A DNA stretch of 49,063 nucleotides from Candidatus Magasanikiibacteriota bacterium (GTDB taxonomy: Bacteria; Patescibacteriota; Patescibacteriia; Magasanikbacterales; UBA922), in assembly GCA_023246555.1 (NCBI GenBank), contig JAHFIC010000002.1:1-49063 (forward strand). Reading direction: 5' to 3'. Positions 2,924-45,881 of the stretch are shown here, piece after piece. The notes under the pieces are model-generated. The model saw only the letters and a list, made by a program, of their open reading frames with translations. It had not been told where the DNA came from and searched no databases. Made by a program: the position numbers and the translations under genes. Each line of letters opens with the position of its first letter. Position 1 is the stretch's first letter.

Positions 2924-5900
2924 TTATGATTGAAATTGCATAAACTCCTGCCATGATACCACAGAGATATTTTTTTCACGAAGCGTTGCTAGGCATTTCA
3001 AAAAAACTTCGGCAAATTGGGCATTGGTAATGAGCGGGATGTGATGGTCGATGGCACGGCGGCGGATCAAATAGCCATCGGTTTCGTGACGTCGCGTATC
3101 GTGTCTTGGAATGTTCACGATAAGGTCTATCGTTCGGTTCTCAATCGCGGTGGTAATATTCGGCTCAATTTCATCGCTGGCTTTAAACAAACATCTGGAT
3201 CCAATGCCGTGCGCTGACAAGACATCGTGGGTGCCCTCGGTGGCAGAAATATCCCAGCCGTTTTCTTCCAGTACGCGTATGAGCGGCACAAATTTTTCTT
3301 TCTCGTCACCTATTGAAACAAAAATGCGTTTTTTGGCGATGTGCTGTTCGGTCGCGAGCCAGGCAAGAAAAAACGCTTCTCCATAATTTTTTCCGATACA
3401 CGCGACTTCTCCGGTAGACGCCATCTCGACTCCAGCGATTGGATCTGAACCCTTCAGGCGTTGATAGGAAAATTGCGGCATTTTGACCCCGACATGGGAA
3501 AGCTCAAGCGTTTCATATGCAGGGGTGTCCGGCATGGATTTTTCGAGAAGCAAGCGGGTGGCAATATCGATGAAGTTGTGCCCCGTGACTTTTGAAACAA
3601 AAGGAAATGACCGTGACGCTCGAAGATTGCATTCGATCACTTTGAGGTCATGGTCTTTTGCAAGGAATTGAATATTAAACGGGCCAGTGACGTGAAGCGC
3701 TCGAACGATCCGCGCGGTAATCGCCTTGGCCCGGCGGATCGTTTCCAAATAGAGCCGTTGGGGAGGAAGAACAATCGTTGCATCCCCCGAGTGCACTCCG
3801 GCATGCTCGACGTGTTCAGAAATAGCTTGAATGACCACACTGCCATTGTTCGCTACTCCATCGATATCGAGTTCTTTTGCTTTGGTGATAAATTTTGAAA
3901 TGACGACCGGATGATCGGGCGAAAGTGTTGTTGCCGTATTGATGTAGGCGGTCAACTCCTCTTCAGAATACACCACATTCATTGCGGCGCCGGAAAGGAC
4001 GTACGATGGTCGCACGAGTACCGGATACCCGACCCGTGTGGAGAAGGCCTTAGCTCGAGGGAGAGTCGTTGCTTCCTCCCATGACGGCTGATCAATGTTC
4101 AAAGTAGTGAGAAGCGTGGAGAATACTTTTCTGTTTTCAGCTCGATCAATATTCTGTCCGGTTGTTCCGAGGATAGTATAGCCGTGTTTCGAAAGCGGCA
4201 AGGCAAGTGTATTTGCAATTTGTCCTCCCACAGAGACGATAATCCCCTTTGCCTGTTCAGCATCGGCAATATCTTGTATTCGCTCCAGCGTTAATTCTTC
4301 AAAATAGAGCCGGTCGGATTCATCATAATCAGTTGAAACCGTTTCGGGGTTGGAGTTGATGATGATCGTAGTTTCTTGAAGCGAACGTAGTGTCCTTGCG
4401 GTGTTGACAGCGCACCAATCAAACTCCACGGATGAGCCAATACAATATGGTCCGGAGCCGAGGACAATTATCGGCCGTTTTTTTGCGGGTGCAGAATCAT
4501 TGGTTTCACCATGATAGGTCGTGTATAAGTAATTTGTTTCGGCAGGAAACTCACCGGCAAGTGTATCAATATGCTTTACGACGGGCTGAATACCTAGGGT
4601 GATTCGGCGTTTTCGTATCGTGTCTTCGGTCAGATGTTTGATTCTTCCAATCGTTTTGTCAGAAAAGCCCATACACTTCGCGTTTCGGAACATGTCCGGA
4701 GTCAGCGCGTGTTTTTTCATCGCGTGTTTCGCCACGGCGATATTTTTTATGTGATACAGAAACCATCGGTCAATATGCGAAAGCCGGTGCGCGTGCTCGA
4801 CATCTCCGCCGCGCATAAAAAATTCCGCAAGAGCAAAAAGCCGGCGGTCAGTGGCTTCTCGGACCTCTTCTTCGTAGTTTGGGATCTGATGGGGATATTC
4901 TGTCACACCATCGGCGCCAATGTTGAGCATTCGTACCGCTTTTTGAAGGGCCTCGGGAAATGACCGTCCAATTCCCATCACTTCACCAACACTTTTCATT
5001 TCAGAACCGATACGTCGATCTGCGGATTTAAATTTTGTCAGATCCCAGCGCGGAATTTTCACCACAAGGTAATCAAGCGCGGGCTCAAAAAAGGCGCTGG
5101 TTTTTTTTGTGATTGCATTTTTGAGCTCATACAGACGGTAGCCAAGCGCGAGTTTCGCTGCCACAAAGGCAAGCGGATAGCCCGTGGCCTTGGACGCGAG
5201 GGCGGACGACCGAGAGAGCCGCGCGTTGATTTCAATCACGCGGTAGTCTCCATTTTTTGGGTTGAGCGCGTACTGGATATTGCACTCCCCGACAATGCCT
5301 AAGGCTCTGGCAGTGCGCAACGCAACCTCACGGAGCATGTGATATTCGGCATTCGTGAGTGTCTGCGATGGGGCGACAACAATACTCTCGCCCGTATGGA
5401 TCCCCATAGGATCCATATTTTCCATATTGCAGACGGTTATGGCATTATCATCGCAATCCCTCACAATTTCATATTCAATTTCTTTCCAACCACCAAGGTA
5501 TTCCTCGATCAATATTTGTGGAGCGCCCGCCAATGCCTCACCCGCCCGGTGTTTTAGTGCTTGCGGATCAAGGATTTTTCCTGATCCTAAGCCCCCAAGA
5601 GAGTATCCAGATCTCATCATAATGGGGTAGCCGATTTTTTGTGCGGCAAAAAGCGCCTCTTGAATCGTGGTTACAGCAATGCTTCTCGGTGTTGCGACAT
5701 CGATTTTTTTTAGGTATTGCTTGAAGAGTTCTCGGTCCTCGGTGCGTTTCATTGCGTCAATCGGAGTCCCAAGGACTGATACATGATATTTTTTTAGCAC
5801 CCCACTCTCTGCTAGCGCAAGTCCAAGGTTGAGCGCGGTTTGTCCGCCAAACCCAAGGAGAATGCCATCCGGCCTTTCTTTGTGAATAATCCGTGTAACT

Positions 5901-32137: not shown

Positions 32138-32590
32138 ATGAAAAAAATTATTATCTTTGATTTTCTCCGTACCCTGTTTGATCCTGAAACAGATAGGCTT
32201 GTTCCGGGCGCGCTTGAGGTGCTGGTTGGCGCGGCGAAGGCGGGTTTCACCTTGTATTTAGTATCACAACGCGAAGGCGGAGAAAGAAAAAAAAGAATCG
32301 ATTCACTTCGCATTGGAGCATATTTCGACCGCATGCTTTTTTGTGATGAAAAGACCTCGGAACAATTTGAAGAATTTCTCGAGAGCATCGGGGAAGTTGA
32401 TCGAAAAAAAAGTTTCGTCATTGGCGATCGTGTGAAAGGAGAAATTGTCTGTGGAAATGCCTGCAATCTCCAAACCATTTGGATAAGAAACGGAAAGTTT
32501 GCGGGAGAGTTGGCGCAAACGCCAGAAGAACAGCCGACGTTTTGTGTCGGATCCATCACCGAAATTATTCCGATCCTTGAGCGGGTATGA
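32138..32590 (+). CDS. HAD-superfamily hydrolase-like protein with a non-canonical motif I
   Basis: IIIFDFLRTLFD (D-x-L-x-T instead of D-x-D-x-T), an LVS motif II and a GDRVKGE motif IV. Confidence 0.7.
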   Translation: MKKIIIFDFLRTLFDPETDRLVPGALEVLVGAAKAGFTLYLVSQREGGERKKRIDSLRIGAYFDRMLFCDEKTSEQFEEFLESIGEVDRKKSFVIGDRVKGEIVCGNACNLQTIWIRNGKFAGELAQTPEEQPTFCVGSITEIIPILERV

Positions 32591-32678
32591 TGATTGTGGT
32601 CTGATGCGTTTTGCCGCTCGCGGCAGTCTGCATCAGATTGCAATGGTGCAATCTGGGCGTCTCATTGGAGGAACCATC

Positions 32679-33971
32679 ATGAGACCAGGAGATAGAGGCA
32701 TGAAGTCGATCATTGAAACCATCATTACGAATTCCGGGCTTTGGGATGGCGAGCGGGCAGAAACGCATCGCTTTCTCACGACCCCGGATCTGTTTCCGCT
32801 CTCGGTAGAGCAGGTGCGTGATTTGCGACTCCTCGGAGTCGCGCTCACGGAGTGTCTCGAGGGCGCCTCGCGGATCGCGGCGATCGCCAAAAGCGGCGAA
32901 CTCGGTCGCGGACTGGCGTGGAGAGAGCTCCAGGAGTTCTCGGTCATGCAGGTAGAGAAGGCGTATCGTCCGCTCCAGGTGGCACGGCCGAAGCAGATTC
33001 CGCGGATCGTGAAGGCGGATTTCGTGGAAGGCGAGGATGGACGCTTGTGGCTGGTCGAGATCGATGCCATGAATCGTCGTGGTATGGGCTATACCACGCT
33101 TCTCTCCGACATCCGGAGGACGGTGAAGCCGGAAGCGAAAGCGTTTCCCGGCGTCTCGCCGCTCCTTGCCGCCGAAGTGAAACGGCGTAACGTGGACCGG
33201 CTCGTGTTTCTCTACGCGCACAAAGAGCGCTTCTATCTTCCGGAGTTTGAGATCCTGAAGCGAGCGCTTCGCGTCGAGGGGGTTGAACTCGTTATCGCGG
33301 ATGAGCTCGACATGAAGATCGAGAACGGACGCATCTTCGTGAACGGAGCGGAAGAGCCATCTCGGCTCTTCATCAACTTCCTCGTGATCGCGAAGAACGC
33401 TCCGCTCCTCACGGCGCTCTCGGCGATGTACTTGGCGGGTGAGGTGCAGTTTCTCATCCCGCCGAAGCCATTCCTTGGATCGAAGGCGCTGGGCGGCATC
33501 CTCCGGAATGACGACGGCAACGAAGTGCTCGAAGCCATTCTGCGCTCGCAGATCGATGGTGCGGCGCTCGATACGGTGCGTCGTCACACGCCGGAGACGT
33601 TTTTCGTCGGACGTCATCGCGAGCTTCCCGAGATCGATTCCAATCATCCATGGGTGCTCAAGGAGGCGATCGCCTCGGGGGCGAAAGGTGTCGTGTTTTC
33701 GACGGATGACGGGTTCTCGAGCGCGCTTGCGGCGGCCAAGAAAGCGGATGGGCGCTATGTGCTTCAGCGTGAAGTCGAAGGTAAAAAAAGATATTTCCGT
33801 TATTATCTTCCGGGAAGCGATGATCTGACGGCAGCTGGTCGGTGGTACACGCGGCTCGTCGTCTACTTCATCGCGGGCATTCCCGCTGATGTCGGTGTGA
33901 CCGGCTGTCAGACCAAGCTGGTTCATGGCGGAAAAGACGCGATCCTCATGGGAGCCATGATCGACGAGTAA
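32679..33971 (+). CDS. ATP-grasp-like ligase (glutathionylspermidine-synthase-like / circularly permuted motif order), high GC
   Basis: GGAGGA SD sequence 7 nt upstream of the ATG at 32679. Motif order is RIVKADFVEGEDGRLWLVEIDAMN, then LGSKALGGIL, then WVLKEAIASGAKGVVF, then YVLQREVE. The functional call is tentative. Confidence 0.55.
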   Translation: MRPGDRGMKSIIETIITNSGLWDGERAETHRFLTTPDLFPLSVEQVRDLRLLGVALTECLEGASRIAAIAKSGELGRGLAWRELQEFSVMQVEKAYRPLQVARPKQIPRIVKADFVEGEDGRLWLVEIDAMNRRGMGYTTLLSDIRRTVKPEAKAFPGVSPLLAAEVKRRNVDRLVFLYAHKERFYLPEFEILKRALRVEGVELVIADELDMKIENGRIFVNGAEEPSRLFINFLVIAKNAPLLTALSAMYLAGEVQFLIPPKPFLGSKALGGILRNDDGNEVLEAILRSQIDGAALDTVRRHTPETFFVGRHRELPEIDSNHPWVLKEAIASGAKGVVFSTDDGFSSALAAAKKADGRYVLQREVEGKKRYFRYYLPGSDDLTAAGRWYTRLVVYFIAGIPADVGVTGCQTKLVHGGKDAILMGAMIDE

Positions 33972-39371: not shown

Positions 39372-39400
39372 TTGACAGAAAGAGATTTTTTAGATATAGT
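39372..39400 (+). promoter_or_regulatory. typA promoter
   Basis: TTGACA, a 17-nt spacer, then TATAGT. The ATG at 39411 is 10 nt after the -10 box. Confidence 0.6.
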
Positions 39401-39410
39401 GTGCGTCTAT

Positions 39411-41198
39411 ATGGAAATTCGCAATATCGCAATTATCGCACACGTTGATCACGGCAAGACCACGCTCACCGATGCTTTGATGCGCCAAACCGGCATGGTC
39501 ACCGACGAAACGGTTAGCATGGACAGTAACGCTCTTGAAAAAGAGCGCGGCATTACGATTTATGCCAAAAATACCTCCACATTTTATAAAGACACAAAAA
39601 TTAATATCGTGGATACTCCCGGTCACGCGGATTTTGGCTCTGAGGTCGAGCGCGTGCTTCGTTCGATTGATTCCGTCCTCCTGATTGTCGATGCTCAAGA
39701 AGGTCCCATGCCGCAGACAAAATTTGTGCTCAAGAAATCACTTGAGTTGGGGTTAAAGCCGATTGTGGTTTTAAATAAGATTGATAAACCAGCAGCAGAT
39801 CCGGTGCGTGCGCATGATCAAGTCCTTGAGTTGTTTATGGATTTGGGTGCCAACGATGAACAGCTGAATTTTACGACGGTCTATGCGATTGGACGCCAAG
39901 GGATTGCCAAGAAAAATCTTGCCGATGAGTCGACAAATTTAAACCCGCTTTTGGATATTATTTTAGAAAAAGTGCCGCCAGCACCTTCTGACACGACAAA
40001 GCCGCTCCGCATGCAGCCGTTCAATCTTGGCTACGACAATTTTGTCGGTCGCCTTGCGATCGGTCGCGTATACGAAGGAGTCATTCATACCGGCGACAAA
40101 GTCGTGGTGAAGAATCCAGACGGTAAGACGCGCACAGCAACGATTACAAAACTTTTTACCTTTCGTGGTACGCATCGACAGGAAGCAACAGAGGCGTTTG
40201 CTGGTGACATTGTCATGGTCGCCGGCATTGCCAATATTGATATTGGTGAAACAATTTGCATGAGCGTTGATCAGGAATCGCTTCCAGCCATTCGTGTTGA
40301 TGAACCAACAATTTCTCTGAATTTTCTTGTGAATAGCTCTCCATTTGCCGGAAAAGACGGGAAGTTTGTGACTAATCGCCAGATCAAAGAGCGGCTCGAG
40401 AAAGAGCTGGAAGTGAATGTGGGACTGAAAATTGATTTTTCTTCAAGCGATTATTACACGGTCTATGGCCGCGGTGAACTCCACATTGCGATTTTGCTTG
40501 AAAATATGCGCCGTGAAGGATACGAACTGCAAGTATCGCAGCCTCATGTCATTATTAAAGAAGTGAATGGACAGAAATTGGAGCCTTTTGAAGAAGCGAC
40601 CGTGGATACCCCGGAGACATTTACCGGTACGGTGATTGAAAAAATGTCCAAGCGCAAAGGTAGCATGGTTGAGATGAAACCCAATCACGGGATGACGCGT
40701 ATTGTTTTTGAAATCCCCACACGCGGGCTTTTAGGATATCGAAGTGAATTTGTTATGGACACGCGCGGCGAGGGGATTCTCTGCAGTCGATTTTTGGAAT
40801 TCCGTCCGTTTGTTGGCGAGATCGAAAAACGCGATGTTGGCTCTATGGTTTCCATGGAAACAGGCAAGGCACTTGGCTATTCACTCGCAAATTTACAAGA
40901 GCGGGGAGTATTGTATATCGGACCGAACACCGACGTGTACGAGGGTATGGTGATTGGGAATGTATCGAAAGGCAATGACATGGTGGTGAACCCGATTAAA
41001 GGCAAACAATTGACGAATATGCGCGCGTCCGGCACCGACGAGGCGCTCCAGCTTACGCCACATATGGAAGTGACGCTCGAGCGCGGACTTGAAATTATGG
41101 CAGAAGATGAATACCTCGAAATTACGCCCAAACATATCCGACTTCGGAAGCAGATCCTTACCGAGAGCGAACGGACCAGAGTCTCGCGGAGGAATTAA
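39411..41198 (+). CDS. typA: translational GTPase TypA/BipA
   Basis: NIAIIAHVDHGKTTL, DTPGHADF and NKID motifs; ~595 aa. Confidence 0.95.
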   Translation: MEIRNIAIIAHVDHGKTTLTDALMRQTGMVTDETVSMDSNALEKERGITIYAKNTSTFYKDTKINIVDTPGHADFGSEVERVLRSIDSVLLIVDAQEGPMPQTKFVLKKSLELGLKPIVVLNKIDKPAADPVRAHDQVLELFMDLGANDEQLNFTTVYAIGRQGIAKKNLADESTNLNPLLDIILEKVPPAPSDTTKPLRMQPFNLGYDNFVGRLAIGRVYEGVIHTGDKVVVKNPDGKTRTATITKLFTFRGTHRQEATEAFAGDIVMVAGIANIDIGETICMSVDQESLPAIRVDEPTISLNFLVNSSPFAGKDGKFVTNRQIKERLEKELEVNVGLKIDFSSSDYYTVYGRGELHIAILLENMRREGYELQVSQPHVIIKEVNGQKLEPFEEATVDTPETFTGTVIEKMSKRKGSMVEMKPNHGMTRIVFEIPTRGLLGYRSEFVMDTRGEGILCSRFLEFRPFVGEIEKRDVGSMVSMETGKALGYSLANLQERGVLYIGPNTDVYEGMVIGNVSKGNDMVVNPIKGKQLTNMRASGTDEALQLTPHMEVTLERGLEIMAEDEYLEITPKHIRLRKQILTESERTRVSRRN

Positions 41199-41255: not shown

Positions 41256-42038
41256 TTACGGTTTTCCCTTGCACTCTGGCGCTGCGGTAGCAGTGAGCGT
41301 CCACGTCGCAATCCAGTAGTAGTCATCACCATAGATGAGTTGCCAGTAGTTTCGTTCAAATGGGTCGCGATCGTTGGAGTCGATCACGTAGTAGCGTGTT
41401 GGCGTGTCATCGAGCGGCGTAAAACCGTAGACCACCCGGACGTGCGATTGATACTCCCCGTTACTGTCCCTTTTCGTGCTTTGCACTACGATCATCACCG
41501 GCCGGTTGTTTGACAGCTCCCACTGAAGATCGGTTTCACTGAACCATTGGGTCGCGTTGTAGGAGACCTCGTGCTCGTAGCCGGTCAGCTTGAACGCCTT
41601 TCGAATCTGCTCGTCCGTCCCGCCGTGGTCGCAGGTCGTGTCGCAGGCTTCGGGGACACAGCAATCCGGATAGGAAATCGCGGGGTGCGTCGTCGAGGTG
41701 CTCACGATTGCAACCGTCGTCGTCTGCGTGACGAGGTCGCACGGCCGAATCGCGTCTCGCGTGTAGTAGCTGCCGATCATGGCGACATCAGTCGCCCAGC
41801 ACCACTTGCATCGTTGGACGAAGCCCGGCACTTTGAGCTGGACGCCCTGAGATTTGATTGGCCCGAAATCGCAGATGGTGGCGAAAGGCTTTTTTGCCGG
41901 CATCGTCGAAACCCGTGCACAGCAAATACTTGTTCCGACAAGGATGCCTGTGAGAACCGACACCCAAAGAAAGATAATCAGAAAACTTCTATCGATTTTG
42001 AAAGAGCCCACGCCTTCCTCCTTTCCATGGTTGCGCAT
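41256..42038 (-). CDS. membrane-anchored papain-like cysteine peptidase (C70/C39-like), high GC
   Basis: Q-x5-C-W-A motif (FVQRCKWCWATDVAMIGSYY), a later SHVRVVYGF His and a VIDSND Asp/Asn. N-terminal TM anchor and many Cys residues. Start at 42038 (MRNHGK). Confidence 0.6.
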   Translation of the reverse strand: MRNHGKEEGVGSFKIDRSFLIIFLWVSVLTGILVGTSICCARVSTMPAKKPFATICDFGPIKSQGVQLKVPGFVQRCKWCWATDVAMIGSYYTRDAIRPCDLVTQTTTVAIVSTSTTHPAISYPDCCVPEACDTTCDHGGTDEQIRKAFKLTGYEHEVSYNATQWFSETDLQWELSNNRPVMIVVQSTKRDSNGEYQSHVRVVYGFTPLDDTPTRYYVIDSNDRDPFERNYWQLIYGDDYYWIATWTLTATAAPECKGKP

Positions 42039-42073
42039 GTTGTTTCTTTCTAGTAAACTATATTTATATCCAT

Positions 42074-42550
42074 ATGCCAAGTAAAACCTCCCCCAAAGAT
42101 TTTTTCATGCATCTTTTGGCTATGGTAGCGCTCTATGGAAGCGCGATCAGTTTTTCAGCGATTGTTTTTCAATATATTAATTTACGCATCCCGGACGCGC
42201 TTGAAATGGCGCAGTATTTCTCTCCCGAGAACGCAAAAGAGATTATTCGCCGTTCACTTTCGTTTCTCATCATCCTTTTCCCCGTGTATATTGCGACCGC
42301 GTGGCAGCTTCAAAAAATTTATCGAGAATATCCCGAGAAGCGCGAACTGTGGGTTCGCCGTTGGTTGACCTACCTCACCTTGTTTATTGCCGCTCTGATT
42401 ATCATTTTTGATTTGGTGTCGCTCGTGAATCATTTTCTTGATGGTGAACTCACCCTCCGTTTCTTTCTAAAAGTGTTCACGATTTTATTCGTAGCCGGAT
42501 CGATCTTCGGCTACTATCTGTGGGATCTCAAGAAATATCGAGTTGAATAA
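42074..42550 (+). CDS. DUF5671 membrane protein
   Basis: PKDFFMHLLAMVALY...RRWLTYLTLFIAA...LDGELTLRFFLKV pattern. Confidence 0.75.
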   Translation: MPSKTSPKDFFMHLLAMVALYGSAISFSAIVFQYINLRIPDALEMAQYFSPENAKEIIRRSLSFLIILFPVYIATAWQLQKIYREYPEKRELWVRRWLTYLTLFIAALIIIFDLVSLVNHFLDGELTLRFFLKVFTILFVAGSIFGYYLWDLKKYRVE

Positions 42551-42558
42551 AAGGTCGT

Positions 42559-43032
42559 ATGAAGATTTTTGTCGGGAGTATCATAGTTATTGTTTTTGCT
42601 GCCATCCTTGTAGGCGTTTATGTTGTCGGCTCTCCAAACCAGGCTCGGCTGAAACGTTTTGATGAGATTCGTCTGGGGAACTTGCAGATGATCCAGGGAG
42701 AACTCACCAATTATTGGCAGGCGAAAAAAGATCTACCAACCGCTGTTGAAGAGCTGAATGACACTCTTCGTGGATTTGCTCTTCCGAAAGATCCGAGAAG
42801 CGCCACGGAATATGAGTATGTGCGAAAAAGCGCGGAAGAGTTTGTACTGTGCGCTGTATTTGACACGGCCAGCGAGTCGGACACTCTTGGAGCAAAGTAT
42901 CCAGTACCGTATCCTGCGGCGTATCCGTATGGTCCGTTTCGTGATGGCGGCAACTGGGAACATGGCATCGGACGCACGTGCTTTGAACGCACCATTGATC
43001 CTGATTTCTTCCAACCACCCAAGCTGGATTAG
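42559..43032 (+). CDS. membrane-anchored hypothetical protein (pseudopilin-like architecture)
   Basis: N-terminal TM followed by RLKRFDEIRLGNLQMIQGELTNYW...LPKDP...YEY, resembling pilin-like proteins but lacking a prepilin cleavage motif. Confidence 0.6.
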   Translation: MKIFVGSIIVIVFAAILVGVYVVGSPNQARLKRFDEIRLGNLQMIQGELTNYWQAKKDLPTAVEELNDTLRGFALPKDPRSATEYEYVRKSAEEFVLCAVFDTASESDTLGAKYPVPYPAAYPYGPFRDGGNWEHGIGRTCFERTIDPDFFQPPKLD

Positions 43033-43055
43033 TCTTACATCGAACAAAGACCACC

Positions 43056-43084
43056 TTGACATAAGGGGGTTTTTGTCGTATACT
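43056..43084 (+). promoter_or_regulatory. near-consensus promoter of the LysM-vWA gene
   Basis: TTGACA, a 17-nt spacer, then TATACT. Confidence 0.65.
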
Positions 43085-43144
43085 GTGCCTTGTTCTTTTT
43101 GAGTGCTTGATGAGCACTCTGCCCTCAAGGAGGGGGCGAAAATC

Positions 43145-43972
43145 ATGCGAAAAGGATTGAATAGCAGACTAAAGATGGCAGGCTTATTTCTAGCTCTGAT
43201 TACCGGCCTGCCCGTTGCGCTCTTGCAGATCAACTGCGACGAAGTGCCGGTGCCATCGGCACAAGCGCCGATGCGCACGCACGTCGTCCAGACCGGTGAG
43301 TTTCTCCGATCGATCGCTGGGCAGTACGATGTCTCGTGGGAGGCGATCCTCCTCACGAACGAGACGTACCTCCAGGCGCAGTACGAGGAGACGTGTGGCA
43401 GCAAACCCGAGAGCTACACCAACAACGCTAGGCGGCGGGGGACCTTCTGCAACAATCGGTACCACAGACCGTACGGGAACACGCTCAAGCCAGGATGGAA
43501 GCTCAACATCCCCGCGTCCACCGCACCCGCTGCGATCAACGCAGTCGTCGAGGCGGCGCACGGCGACAGGATCGCTCTGGTGATCGACGACACCGGTTCC
43601 ATGAACGAAGACCGTCAGCGGGTCAGCGCCTTTTATCTCGCCGCGATCCAACAATACTCGAAGCGGCTCACCGGCGTCTGGCTCTACGCGGACGGTGTCG
43701 TCAGAAAGTATGAAGGCGGCAATGTGCGCTTCTCCACCAGCGGGAATGTGGAGAACACCTTCGGCGCCCTTCGAGAGGCCGCGGCGACGAGTCCTGATAC
43801 GATTATTCTCGTCACGGACGAGCCAGGCGACGATTGGGATTGGTCGGAAGTGAATCGACTGCCGCCGGTTCTCGCGCACTGTCTCAAAGACGGTGGAACC
43901 TTCCTTTGTGAGGAGAATCTCCGTCGCGTCGCGCAGGAGACGAACGGCCGGTATACGGCCGGCATCAAGTAG
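43145..43972 (+). CDS. exported LysM-like plus von Willebrand factor A domain protein, high GC
   Basis: GGAGGGGG SD sequence and a signal/anchor segment. LysM-like HVVQTGEFLRSIAGQYDVSWEAIL...LKPGWKLNIP carries an insert. The MIDAS-like motif is VIDDTGSM. Confidence 0.75.
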   Translation: MRKGLNSRLKMAGLFLALITGLPVALLQINCDEVPVPSAQAPMRTHVVQTGEFLRSIAGQYDVSWEAILLTNETYLQAQYEETCGSKPESYTNNARRRGTFCNNRYHRPYGNTLKPGWKLNIPASTAPAAINAVVEAAHGDRIALVIDDTGSMNEDRQRVSAFYLAAIQQYSKRLTGVWLYADGVVRKYEGGNVRFSTSGNVENTFGALREAAATSPDTIILVTDEPGDDWDWSEVNRLPPVLAHCLKDGGTFLCEENLRRVAQETNGRYTAGIK

Positions 43973-44000
43973 AACATCTTAGCGATCGTCGGCCGCTGTC

Positions 44001-44050
44001 GGGTCAGGCTCTCGGAACCATCATCTCCGATCGAGCCTGGCCCGTTTTTT
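44001..44050 (+). terminator. long-stem intrinsic terminator
   Basis: GGGTCAGGCTC...GAGCCTGGCCC (11 bp including one G-U pair) with an inner TCGGA/TCCGA stem, followed by GTTTTTT. Confidence 0.8.
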
Positions 44051-44086
44051 ATTTTCGTTTTGTTTGCTACACTACTCGAAGGATAT

Positions 44087-44881
44087 ATGATAAAAAAACA
44101 AACATCCTGGGGGAATGTCGCTCTGTGGTATCACGAGCTTTTGAAAAACGGTAAAGGCACCTATCAGCACGACGTGATTCTTCCTCAGATCGTGCGATTA
44201 CTTGAGCCCAAAAAAGGACAAACGGTTCTTGATCTTGCTTGCGGACCAGGGTTTTTCGCGCGTGAATTCGCAAAAATGGGTCCGAAGGTGATTGGTATTG
44301 ATATTGCGGAAGAGTTGATTCTATTTGCAAAAAAGGCCACCGCCCTGGGCGGGGCCACGCCTACCGGCGGGAAGGTGCAAAATTTGGAGTTTTTCGTTAC
44401 GCCTGCGGATCACATTCCCATGATAAAAAATAAAAGTGTCGACGCGGTGACGATCATTCTCGCGCTTCAGAATATTGAAAACATGGCTGGTGTTTTTGCC
44501 GAATGCAGCCGAGTGCTGAAGGCTGACGGCCGATTGCTTCTCGTATTGAACCACCCCGCCTTTCGCGTGCCGAAAGCGAGCGACTGGGGGTGGGATGAGG
44601 AAAACAAGATTCAGTACCGTCGTGTTGATGCCTATATGAGCGAGGCGCGGGTAAAAATTGACATGCATCCTGGCGACGACCCATCCGTCCACACTTGGTC
44701 ATTTCATCGGCCGCTTCAGATCTACATGAAAGCACTCCATAAAGCAGGATTTTCCGTGACACGCTTGGAAGAATGGATTTCTAACCGGCAAGGCCCTAAA
44801 GGGAAGCGCTTTGCGGCAAGCGAGAAGGCACGCAAAGAGATACCATTGTTTTTATTTCTTGAAGCATTCATGGCATCATGA
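44087..44881 (+). CDS. class I SAM-dependent methyltransferase
   Basis: VLDLACGPGFF motif I. Confidence 0.85.
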   Translation: MIKKQTSWGNVALWYHELLKNGKGTYQHDVILPQIVRLLEPKKGQTVLDLACGPGFFAREFAKMGPKVIGIDIAEELILFAKKATALGGATPTGGKVQNLEFFVTPADHIPMIKNKSVDAVTIILALQNIENMAGVFAECSRVLKADGRLLLVLNHPAFRVPKASDWGWDEENKIQYRRVDAYMSEARVKIDMHPGDDPSVHTWSFHRPLQIYMKALHKAGFSVTRLEEWISNRQGPKGKRFAASEKARKEIPLFLFLEAFMAS

Positions 44882-44908
44882 TACAGTTAAAAAGGGAGGA
44901 GATGAGCT

Positions 44909-45232
44909 ATGGAACGCCAGGGAATTCCAGAAGTTCCAGTATCTTTTCGAAACCATTGCAATACTTGCGGGCTGACGACGGAATTTGTTCCCACGGAGAT
45001 CGACCATGTGACCGCCAAAGGCCTTCGATTTTTTTGTCAGTTCTGCAAGAAGCGGTTTGCGACCATTCTGTTTAAGAAGCCGCTCCACTGTTTTCATTGC
45101 AAGAAAGCGACGTGGCGCTGGCTTTTGGGGTATGCCGAGGGTGATTATCTGTATGTCTGTGAGGATTGCACCCGGTGGTTTCCCCGTGGTGAGCCGTTTA
45201 TCGAAGTCGATGCGGAAAAAGAGACAAAATAA
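44909..45232 (+). CDS. small protein with four CxxC pairs (double zinc-ribbon-like)
   Basis: GGGAGGAG SD sequence 7 nt upstream. Contains the pairs CNTC, CQFC, CFHC and CEDC. Confidence 0.55.
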   Translation: MERQGIPEVPVSFRNHCNTCGLTTEFVPTEIDHVTAKGLRFFCQFCKKRFATILFKKPLHCFHCKKATWRWLLGYAEGDYLYVCEDCTRWFPRGEPFIEVDAEKETK

Positions 45233-45280
45233 CCTGAGTCCGTTCCTTGGTGGGGCGGACTTCACTTCTTTTTATAGAGT

Positions 45281-45868
45281 ATGCCAAAAAAGCGCAGGGA
45301 GAATCGTATTTCCACAGTGATTGCAAAGCGTCAGCGTGGGATCATTGTCGTTCTTGAAGATCTCCACGATCCGCACAATGTGGCGGCGATTCTTCGCACC
45401 TGTGATGTGTTTGGTATTCAAGATGTTGTGTGCATTTACGAGACAGAGAAGTACGTGAATCCCAAACGCGTGGGGCGCTCGAGCTCAAGTTCTGCCAACA
45501 AGTGGCTTGATTTTACGGTGTATCGCTCCAGCACCGAAGCTGTCCAGGCATTAAAAGGTAATAAGTACCAATTGTTTGTGACAGTACTTGACGATACGGC
45601 GCAACCTCTCTACGATACCGACATGACGGCGGAGCCGGTTGCATTGGTTTTTGGGAATGAGCATACTGGCATATCGAAGACGATGCTGACGGTCGCGGAC
45701 AAGAAAATATTTATTCCCATGCGCGGGATGGTTCAGAGCTTGAATGTGTCGGTCGCTGCGGCGATTTGCTTGTCGGAATTGATACGACAGCGCATGGCAT
45801 CGCGAAAAGATTTTTCATTGCCGGCACGTGAACAAGCTGACTTGGTAAAAAGTTTTTTAGAGCGTTAA
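45281..45868 (+). CDS. trmH: SpoU/TrmH-family RNA 2'-O-methyltransferase
   Basis: VLEDLHDPHNVAAILRTCDVFG and FGNEHTGIS motifs. Confidence 0.85.
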   Translation: MPKKRRENRISTVIAKRQRGIIVVLEDLHDPHNVAAILRTCDVFGIQDVVCIYETEKYVNPKRVGRSSSSSANKWLDFTVYRSSTEAVQALKGNKYQLFVTVLDDTAQPLYDTDMTAEPVALVFGNEHTGISKTMLTVADKKIFIPMRGMVQSLNVSVAAAICLSELIRQRMASRKDFSLPAREQADLVKSFLER

Positions 45869-45881
45869 GTAGGTTTGTTTT

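Follow-up and report, generated by a model that had tools for sequence, protein, structure and literature searches.

We analysed a DNA stretch of 49,063 nucleotides (hereafter, the window), corresponding to one contig (JAHFIC010000002.1, assembly GCA_023246555.1) of a Candidatus Magasanikiibacteriota genome, within the Patescibacteria or candidate phyla radiation (CPR), focusing on four consecutive open reading frames (ORFs) located between bipA/typA and a class I methyltransferase gene (ATG at 44087). The source genome is a metagenome-assembled genome (MAG) of 770,425 bp in 56 contigs, with a GC content of 0.4875. A first-pass annotation of this DNA had read the four genes as one envelope module that could act at the surface of a host or neighbouring cell. 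Our comparative analysis points to another reading, which we hold to be probable: there is no four-gene system, and the locus is made up of a conserved gene pair, encoding a DUF5671 membrane protein and a transmembrane (TM)-anchored ectodomain, with two unrelated accessory genes for surface proteins, one on either side, encoding a cysteine peptidase and a protein with LysM and von Willebrand factor A (vWA)-like domains (hereafter, LysM-vWA), whose bias in GC content at third codon positions (GC3) is maintained or renewed. The features of the locus are as follows:

39372-41198: bipA/typA, left-hand flank of the four genes
41256-42038, minus strand: peptidase of C70/C39_2 type, 260 aa, GC 0.557, GC3 0.697
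42039-42073: divergent gap of 35 nt between the starts of the peptidase (42038) and DUF5671 (42074) genes
42074-42550, plus strand: DUF5671 four-TM membrane protein, 158 aa, GC 0.434, GC3 0.503
42559-43032, plus strand: TM-anchored ectodomain, 157 aa, GC 0.492, GC3 0.468
43056-43084, plus strand: predicted LysM-vWA promoter, TTGACA-17-TATACT
43085-43144, plus strand: LysM-vWA leader, with a hairpin and the Shine-Dalgarno sequence AAGGAGGGGG
43145-43972, plus strand: exported protein with LysM and a compact vWA-like domain carrying a metal ion-dependent adhesion site (MIDAS) motif, 275 aa, GC 0.600, GC3 0.750
44000-44056, plus strand: predicted intrinsic terminator of LysM-vWA, a GC-rich hairpin of the 17-bp class followed by TTTTTTATTTT

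The ORF calls agreed with the first-pass annotation on the position of the four genes, on the 35-nt gap and on the anchored or exported nature of the products. N-terminal hydrophobic segments were read from the sequence in the peptidase, the ectodomain and LysM-vWA, and four TM helices in DUF5671.

Gene order and co-occurrence in related genomes

The same backbone was found in five genus-level loci, in the order bipA - (slot A) - DUF5671 - ectodomain - (slot B) - methyltransferase - ... - spoU - MGMT - rlmI-like. In the organisation proposed here, bipA, DUF5671, the ectodomain gene and the methyltransferase gene would be the constant part, with one variable slot on each side of the DUF5671/ectodomain pair. 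Indeed, DUF5671 adjoins the bipA backbone, with slot A between, in all genus members and in one other genus. Slot A carried one peptidase gene in the window, in loci L011 and L034 and in genome G002, three in tandem in genome G001, and none in G003 or in G035 (from another genus), i.e., 0, 1 or 3 copies across the genus. Slot B carried LysM-vWA in the window only, PolB-exonuclease-like and DUF5698 genes in G001, a gene for a small membrane protein in G002, and no gene in G003 and L034.

None of the 60 relatives searched had LysM-vWA, the peptidase-bearing G001 and G002 being among them. The family comprised 34 clusters among 5.8 billion proteins, with homologues 34-60% identical, and 20 loci in 185,579 species genomes, all of them in hosts of 0.5-1.3 Mb, distributed among Kaiserbacteria, Doudnabacteria, Uhrbacteria and other small-genome MAGs. 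Its neighbours varied by lineage (DUF948 and MreB; CAP and PAP2; CutA1 and RecG), two more loci lying beside peptidases S51/S66 and beside ribosomal protein L21. Furthermore, at none of the 25 other LysM-vWA loci did the retrieved flanks contain the peptidase, and its subfamily was missing from 18/18 LysM-vWA host genomes searched, while five other peptidase loci were devoid of LysM-vWA.

The first-pass annotation had itself proposed that co-occurrence and neighbourhoods be compared across relatives, and had named a lack of co-occurrence elsewhere as evidence against its module. In this comparison, LysM-vWA and the peptidase were never found together outside the source genome, and the claim of a four-gene module was not sustained. 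The adjacency of the genes, the export or anchoring of all four products, the divergent region shared by two of them, and one other locus (L047) that pairs LysM-vWA with a nearby DUF5671 fusion gene speak for such a module; however, the restriction of the combination to the source genome, the mutual absences described above, the promoter and terminator belonging to LysM-vWA itself, and the retention of the other three genes without LysM-vWA in L011 and L034 make it highly improbable.

Some linkage data weigh against the preferred reading of a conserved pair with unrelated flanking genes. The peptidase lies in the slot beside DUF5671 in five of the six genus-level genomes, and the two genes are divergent over 30-63 nt in the three closest loci (window, L011 and L034); given this conserved adjacency, a functional tie between them may exist. 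In addition, L047 has its fused DUF5671 gene 1.2 kb from LysM-vWA, on the opposite strand and with ruvC between, and DUF5671 was near LysM-vWA in two cases in about 26 loci, slightly more than expected by chance.

The peptidase data raise a narrower alternative, a genus-specific unit of three genes in which the peptidase would process, or be positioned by, DUF5671 and the ectodomain, with LysM-vWA as a bystander. It is favoured by the shared slot and the short divergent spacing, as well as by genome G030, where a C39_2 peptidase gene (L028 5857-6723, 39.5 bits) was observed two genes downstream of a fused DUF5671 gene; in the relatives checked, no other C39_2/DUF5671 proximity was seen beyond the window's genus. 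Nevertheless, G003 and about 20 other genera have the DUF5671 pair but not this peptidase; the peptidase varies from 0 to 3 copies, with an extra gene between it and DUF5671 in G002; C39_2 peptidases in general were encoded by 56/61 relatives, nearly always at other genomic positions; and identity across the genus falls to 27-31% for the peptidase, against 63-75% for DUF5671. We consider a three-gene unit unlikely. A general linkage of C39_2 with DUF5671 was rejected, since nearly all relatives have their C39_2 genes at other positions. As for the divergent gap of the window (42039-42073), promoter-like hexamers of each gene sit within the coding sequence (CDS) of the other, both being weak matches of 9/12 (42085-42057 on the minus strand and 41950-41978 on the plus strand).

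Beyond the two slots, the interval between the methyltransferase and spoU genes was also variable, with a 107-aa ORF with four CxxC motifs in the window (44909-45232), a Gmad2/Cys-rich protein in L011 (3142-3789) and a GSDH-like protein in L034 (1148-2605). Regarding the hosts of LysM-vWA, nine MAGs of 0.7-1.3 Mb titled 'uncultured Gammaproteobacteria' (L040, L041, L045-L049, L051 and L053) carry the CPR-type gene, and the taxonomic labels of these nine third-party annotation (TPA) assemblies look wrong. Searches of the locus proteins against PADLOC models gave no match and no defence assignment; against PHROGs models, the only match was to an endolysin family, through its LysM part, with no phage assignment; and the NCBIfam scan returned no meaningful matches.

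The LysM-vWA cassette and the composition of the outer genes

LysM-vWA is predicted to be a monocistronic, self-contained cassette. Its promoter matches the consensus at 11/12 positions, a strong Shine-Dalgarno sequence precedes the gene, and its terminator has a fold energy of -34.5 kcal/mol (z -4.2), with 0/200 shuffled sequences as good. In locus L011, whose slot B lacks the LysM-vWA body, the same signals were recovered at 4593-4885 (minus strand of the locus), where promoter (TTGACC-17-CATACT), leader, Shine-Dalgarno sequence and terminator surround a 49-codon ORF. The leader (window 43070-43139 and L011 4885-4820) is 76% identical (E 5e-7) and the terminator (window 43986-44051 and L011 4656-4593) is 78% identical (E 3e-9). 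All that the 49-codon ORF encodes is a signal peptide carrying a lipobox Cys (MTQMKVPSRLKYGRWKVVIYLVLSLSGAGSTLWPAC...); it could be what a deletion left behind, or else a gene for a mini-lipoprotein. Since L011 keeps the promoter, the signal peptide and the terminator of the cassette, the cassette was therefore in this slot before the lineages of the window and L011 split; we conclude from these alignments that L011 probably lost the LysM-vWA gene body after diverging from the window genome.

Within the leader, ahead of the Shine-Dalgarno sequence, the hairpin stems of the window (43100-43140) and L011 (4820-4860) differ, GAGTGCT...AGCACTC in the former and GGCGC...GCGCC in the latter, both being pairable, and a CCCTC-AAG-GAGGG element is identical in the two loci. 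Judged by eye and from this single sequence pair, the stem difference looks like covariation.

With respect to composition, the first-pass annotation had rightly described the outer genes as high in GC and the inner genes as similar to the genome backbone. The mean GC3 of the genome was 0.511 (standard deviation 0.072; 724 heuristic ORFs), and only seven of the 724 ORFs reached the GC3 of LysM-vWA and 14 that of the peptidase, so that the mosaic goes far beyond chance; a caveat against this part of the reading is that the ORF sets used for GC3 statistics are heuristic, consisting of the longest non-overlapping ORFs. The 99th percentile of GC in 800-nt windows of the genome was 0.595.

For such a mosaic, the first-pass annotation had implied lateral transfer, asking that it be tested, and a simple form of this explanation would take the outer genes as recent gains from a donor of higher GC and the mosaic as a scar not yet ameliorated. 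Both outer genes are indeed GC3 outliers; LysM-vWA is patchy across CPR lineages and stands in unrelated contexts; and named homologues occur in higher-GC Kaiserbacteria and Uhrbacteria loci, where the GC of the gene is near that of its flanks. However, the orthologous promoter, signal peptide and terminator in L011 predate the split, and neither convincing direct or inverted repeats nor mobility genes were found flanking the cassette, nor LysM-vWA relatives among the viral contigs searched. Moreover, the bias follows the gene family: among the 20 other loci with at least three other ORFs, spanning 0.41-0.59 GC, LysM-vWA was the highest-GC3 ORF in 18, vertically inherited syntenic copies included, when about 2.8 were expected by chance (e.g., 0.96 where the locus averages 0.54, and 0.62 where it averages 0.30). 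Its GC exceeded that of the flanks in 22/22 loci, by 0.11 on average, and the excess spans the entire CDS, the variable N-terminus included, ending at the CDS boundaries.

Between the window and L011 or L034, fourfold sites were essentially saturated in all syntenic genes, with identities of 0.28-0.42 where composition predicts 0.25-0.32, the exception being the peptidase against L034 (0.47). Against L011, the peptidase behaved like its neighbours (fourfold identity 0.33, amino-acid identity 63%). Its GC3 was 0.70, 0.75 and 0.67 in the window, L011 and L034 lineages, the neighbours having about 0.50, 0.60 and 0.60, which represents an excess of 0.07-0.20 in each of the three. Likewise, in two Uhrbacteria genomes sharing eight syntenic genes, LysM-vWA was 73% identical in amino acids and 0.47 at fourfold sites, in step with its neighbours, and had the highest GC3 of the eight (0.77 and 0.81; median about 0.64). 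This persistence of the excess through long vertical residence indicates that it is maintained or repeatedly renewed, rather than being the scar of one recent transfer, and we regard a recent gain of the outer genes as quite unlikely. In the reading that we prefer, the outer-gene GC would be a CDS-confined third-position bias travelling with the gene families.

As to the cause of the bias, highly expressed genes of the genome have average GC3 (EF-Tu 0.50, EF-G 0.49, GroEL 0.50, RpoC 0.53), which ruled out translational selection. The proposal that exported proteins are GC3-rich in general was rejected as stated, the core C39_2 peptidase of the source genome having a GC3 of 0.47 and 160 ORFs with a hydrophobic N-terminus being average. 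Therefore, the bias is due neither to ordinary translational selection nor to a general export property. Only a crude set of eight lipobox genes was enriched for high GC3 (p 0.007), three of the eight having values of at least 0.65, compared with 3% of other ORFs. GC-biased gene conversion at recombination-prone surface genes and selection on mRNA are possible causes, and recurrent allelic replacement from higher-GC relatives is a further candidate, loci from the window's genus ranging in GC from 0.41 to 0.55. More broadly, it is conceivable, and we put it forward tentatively and at less than even odds, that a class of fast-evolving accessory surface genes in the CPR, LysM-vWA and the peptidase among them, carries a gene-specific and actively maintained GC3 excess that accompanies the gene in hosts of 0.41-0.59 GC and survives complete turnover of synonymous sites.

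Other high-GC3 regions were observed in the source genome. The products of the strongest island (contig C20, 11103-15458; GC3 0.82-0.85) are two lipoproteins, one of 464 aa rich in Cys/Asp and one of 187 aa rich in Pro, and a protein in which GDIATMKGDLGTVK is repeated in tandem, and other top-GC3 ORFs (C2 6133-7503 and C4 4773-5408) likewise begin with signal peptides or lipoboxes. The window itself contains a further high-GC3 ORF at 32499-33971 (GC3 0.68), in a region with GC up to 0.61.

Finally, a MAG of 56 contigs with sharp compositional steps could be an assembly or binning chimera, the GC steps being joins between organisms. Nonetheless, an independent Logan contig of 3,645 bp (L055) is 100% identical to window 42232-45876, crossing both LysM-vWA junctions; the position of the peptidase is reproduced in four other independent assemblies; and the GC steps match CDS ends, with regulatory flanks common to L011. 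A chimera is very unlikely, to the point of being nearly negligible.

Predicted products of the four genes

DUF5671 is a clear member of its family (PF18920; 84.7 bits against a Pfam cut-off of 28.4), as had been annotated. The third gene, encoding the ectodomain, belongs to no Pfam family. It was present in 24/61 relatives, always after DUF5671, with invariant residues that include C98, C141 and RTIDP. The two genes are separate in the window, 8 nt apart (42074-43032), and they form one ORF in at least three other genomes, of 344 aa in G030, 317 aa in G014 and 313 aa in L047, the coordinates of fused ORFs being L028 4235-5269 (G030), L029 5019-5972 and L047 296-1237. In these fused homologues, the ectodomain helix is an internal TM segment.

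The first-pass annotation had called the third product pseudopilin-like, and a faint resemblance in fold was retained from this claim. In an AlphaFold2 model (predicted local distance difference test score, pLDDT, 77), a TM helix continues as a long helix and is followed by a three-strand sheet, comparable to the N-terminal TM helix that runs into a long helix on a small beta-sheet in type IV pilins and type II secretion pseudopilins, and the six best-ranked meaningful Foldseek matches were type IV pilins, at non-significant values (E 0.3-1.4, probability 0.14-0.63, template modelling score 0.24-0.51). Unlike in pilins, however, no prepilin motif (G|F-x-x-x-E, class III signal peptide with Glu at +5) was found in the N-terminus MKIFVGSIIVIVFAAILVGVYVVGSP, and no pilus assembly genes adjoin the ectodomain gene; a search of solved structures by sequence gave nothing for this protein. 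Given its fusion behind DUF5671 elsewhere and the missing prepilin motif, the ectodomain is therefore not a pseudopilin. Comparison of split and fused forms identifies it as the C-terminal half of a membrane protein of the DUF5671 family, one that is divided into two genes in this genus; compared with the rest of the DUF5671 family, the protein of the window is split from its usual or alternative C-terminal ectodomain. Together, DUF5671 and the ectodomain are likely to constitute a core envelope protein unrelated to the outer genes. No paper mentioning DUF5671 was found in the searched literature.

The LysM assignment of the fourth product was upheld by Pfam (25.3 bits; cut-off 20.9), and 30/34 family members matched LysM at E<=1. 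The match covers profile positions 1-27 of 43, because a helical insert of about 45 residues, with two invariant Cys, separates the final beta-strand. Behind a signal or anchor segment ending in ...LLQINC, the domain lies at about residues 44-122, and in the model its beta-alpha-alpha-beta elements are predicted as a strand (44-47), two helices (54-60 and 65-71) and, beyond the insert, a second strand (119-122). The family profile matched the LysM domains of LytE, MltD and Ecp6 in the PDB, only LysM matches being obtained; single-sequence matches to TAL effectors and to an M18 aminopeptidase were dismissed as noise. Compared with LysM proteins, the present one has only one LysM copy and, in the place of a hydrolase, a vWA-like domain behind it.

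The C-terminal portion, of about 135 residues, includes the VIDDTGSM motif noted in the first-pass annotation, which is part of a family-wide MIDAS pattern: D148-D-T150-G-S152-M ... E-N-T205 ... T-D225-E-P-G-D-D-W, invariant or nearly so in 34 homologues. D148, S152, T205 and D225 are invariant, and T150 is conserved in at least 90% of the sequences, one member having Ser there. Based on the 34-homologue alignment, an AlphaFold2 model (pLDDT 85.7, predicted template modelling score 0.79) has a Rossmann-like beta-alpha fold, and its top Foldseek matches in the PDB were the MDN1 MIDAS, NorD, Rpn10 vWA and integrin alphaL/beta3 I domains (probability 1.00, target template modelling score 0.5-0.56). 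Like vWA and integrin I domains, the family has the D-x-T-x-S...T...D arrangement; however, the domain is shorter (about 135 residues, the usual size being about 180), and Thr replaces the first Ser of DxSxS.

Some data on the products count against this part of the reading. None of the Pfam vWA cut-offs was reached by the window protein (VWA_2 12.9 bits against 27, E 0.18), the Foldseek E for vWA/I domains is only about 2e-3, the lipobox-like sequences of the window (QINC in LysM-vWA and SICC in the peptidase) are non-canonical, and the biochemical roles of all products are taken only from their domain families. Sub-threshold matches to VWA_2, VWA_3, VWA_4 and DUF2201 were obtained in up to 14/34 members (best E 4.2e-4). 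Considering the predicted fold and the motif, and not membership by hidden Markov model, we accept the domain as vWA-like with an intact MIDAS motif, so that the earlier vWA assignment stands in this modified form. Accepting this, LysM-vWA is proposed as a membrane-tethered adaptor, whose LysM half would bind an N-acetylglucosamine-containing glycan, of its own wall or of the host's wall, and whose minimal vWA half would use the MIDAS metal ion to bind a protein ligand at an acidic residue. In the searched literature, no papers were found that join LysM and von Willebrand domains in the CPR, nor any on C39_2 in Patescibacteria. A 229-aa antisense ORF was observed inside LysM-vWA (window 43190-43879, minus strand) and a 352-aa one in the L047 homologue; such ORFs are an expected by-product of very high GC3 and were not counted as genes.

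The peptidase scored above the Pfam cut-offs of Peptidase_C70 (AvrRpt2-type, PF12385; 41.2 bits, cut-off 19, E 1.9e-10) and Peptidase_C39_2 (PF13529; 27.3 bits, cut-off 24), as did 4/5 paralogues or orthologues scanned for Pfam. In an alignment of seven family sequences (27-62% identity), Cys80 (in WCWAT), His199 and Asp220 were invariant and in the expected order, in agreement with the C70/C39-like protease first annotated. Six additional Cys were invariant in the same alignment, which fits an extracellular, disulfide-bonded peptidase of clan CA. The N-terminal hydrophobic anchor ends in ...GTSICC; several paralogues have canonical lipoboxes, the GTSIC|C of the window being non-canonical. The subfamily is rare, with 3 clusters in the 5.8-billion-protein collection, and with 36 clusters at E<=1e-3 and 6 at E<=1e-10 among 1.84 billion representatives. 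A search of solved structures by sequence returned no significant relative, the best being a putative C39-like peptidase (3erv, E 1.4). The three tandem paralogues of G001 (contig C26; L024 5535-7867) measure 233, 279 and 272 aa, and all have the Cys and His motifs together with C-terminal CxC tails.

Classical C39 domains are attached to an ATP-binding cassette (ABC) transporter and AvrRpt2 is a type III effector, the present peptidase being neither. It resembles the stand-alone exported C39_2 peptidases that are near-universal in this order (56/61 genomes); compared with both C70 and C39_2, it represents a rare, divergent branch marked by its six extra invariant Cys. From its sequence features, we infer an exported papain-like (clan CA) cysteine peptidase, accessory, fast-diverging, genus-restricted and disulfide-rich. 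Exported or lipid-anchored, this slot A enzyme would presumably cleave extracellular proteins or peptides, and its rapid divergence and changes in copy number suggest an interaction under diversifying pressure.

Meaning for the surface biology of the CPR

The novelty of these results is moderate, and consists of an unannotated, CPR-restricted LysM/mini-vWA architecture, a split or fused DUF5671 ectodomain and a family-wide GC3 excess, with no new multi-gene system. A rare family restricted to the CPR, labelled so far only as 'LysM' or 'hypothetical', can now be read, from sequence and structural model, as a putative surface protein combining LysM with a minimal MIDAS/vWA domain. For bacteria whose way of life is attachment to host cells, LysM-vWA is a plausible tether between wall and protein. 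Furthermore, the pair that is split here and fused elsewhere is a Rosetta-stone case, in which DUF5671 gains an extracellular partner tied to it through the divided C-terminal half.

In terms of genome evolution, genes of small genomes that are bounded by sharp GC steps need not have been recently transferred or misassembled. If accessory surface genes of the CPR do carry an actively maintained GC3 excess, local GC3 would mark a hidden regime of recombination or selection rather than recent transfer.

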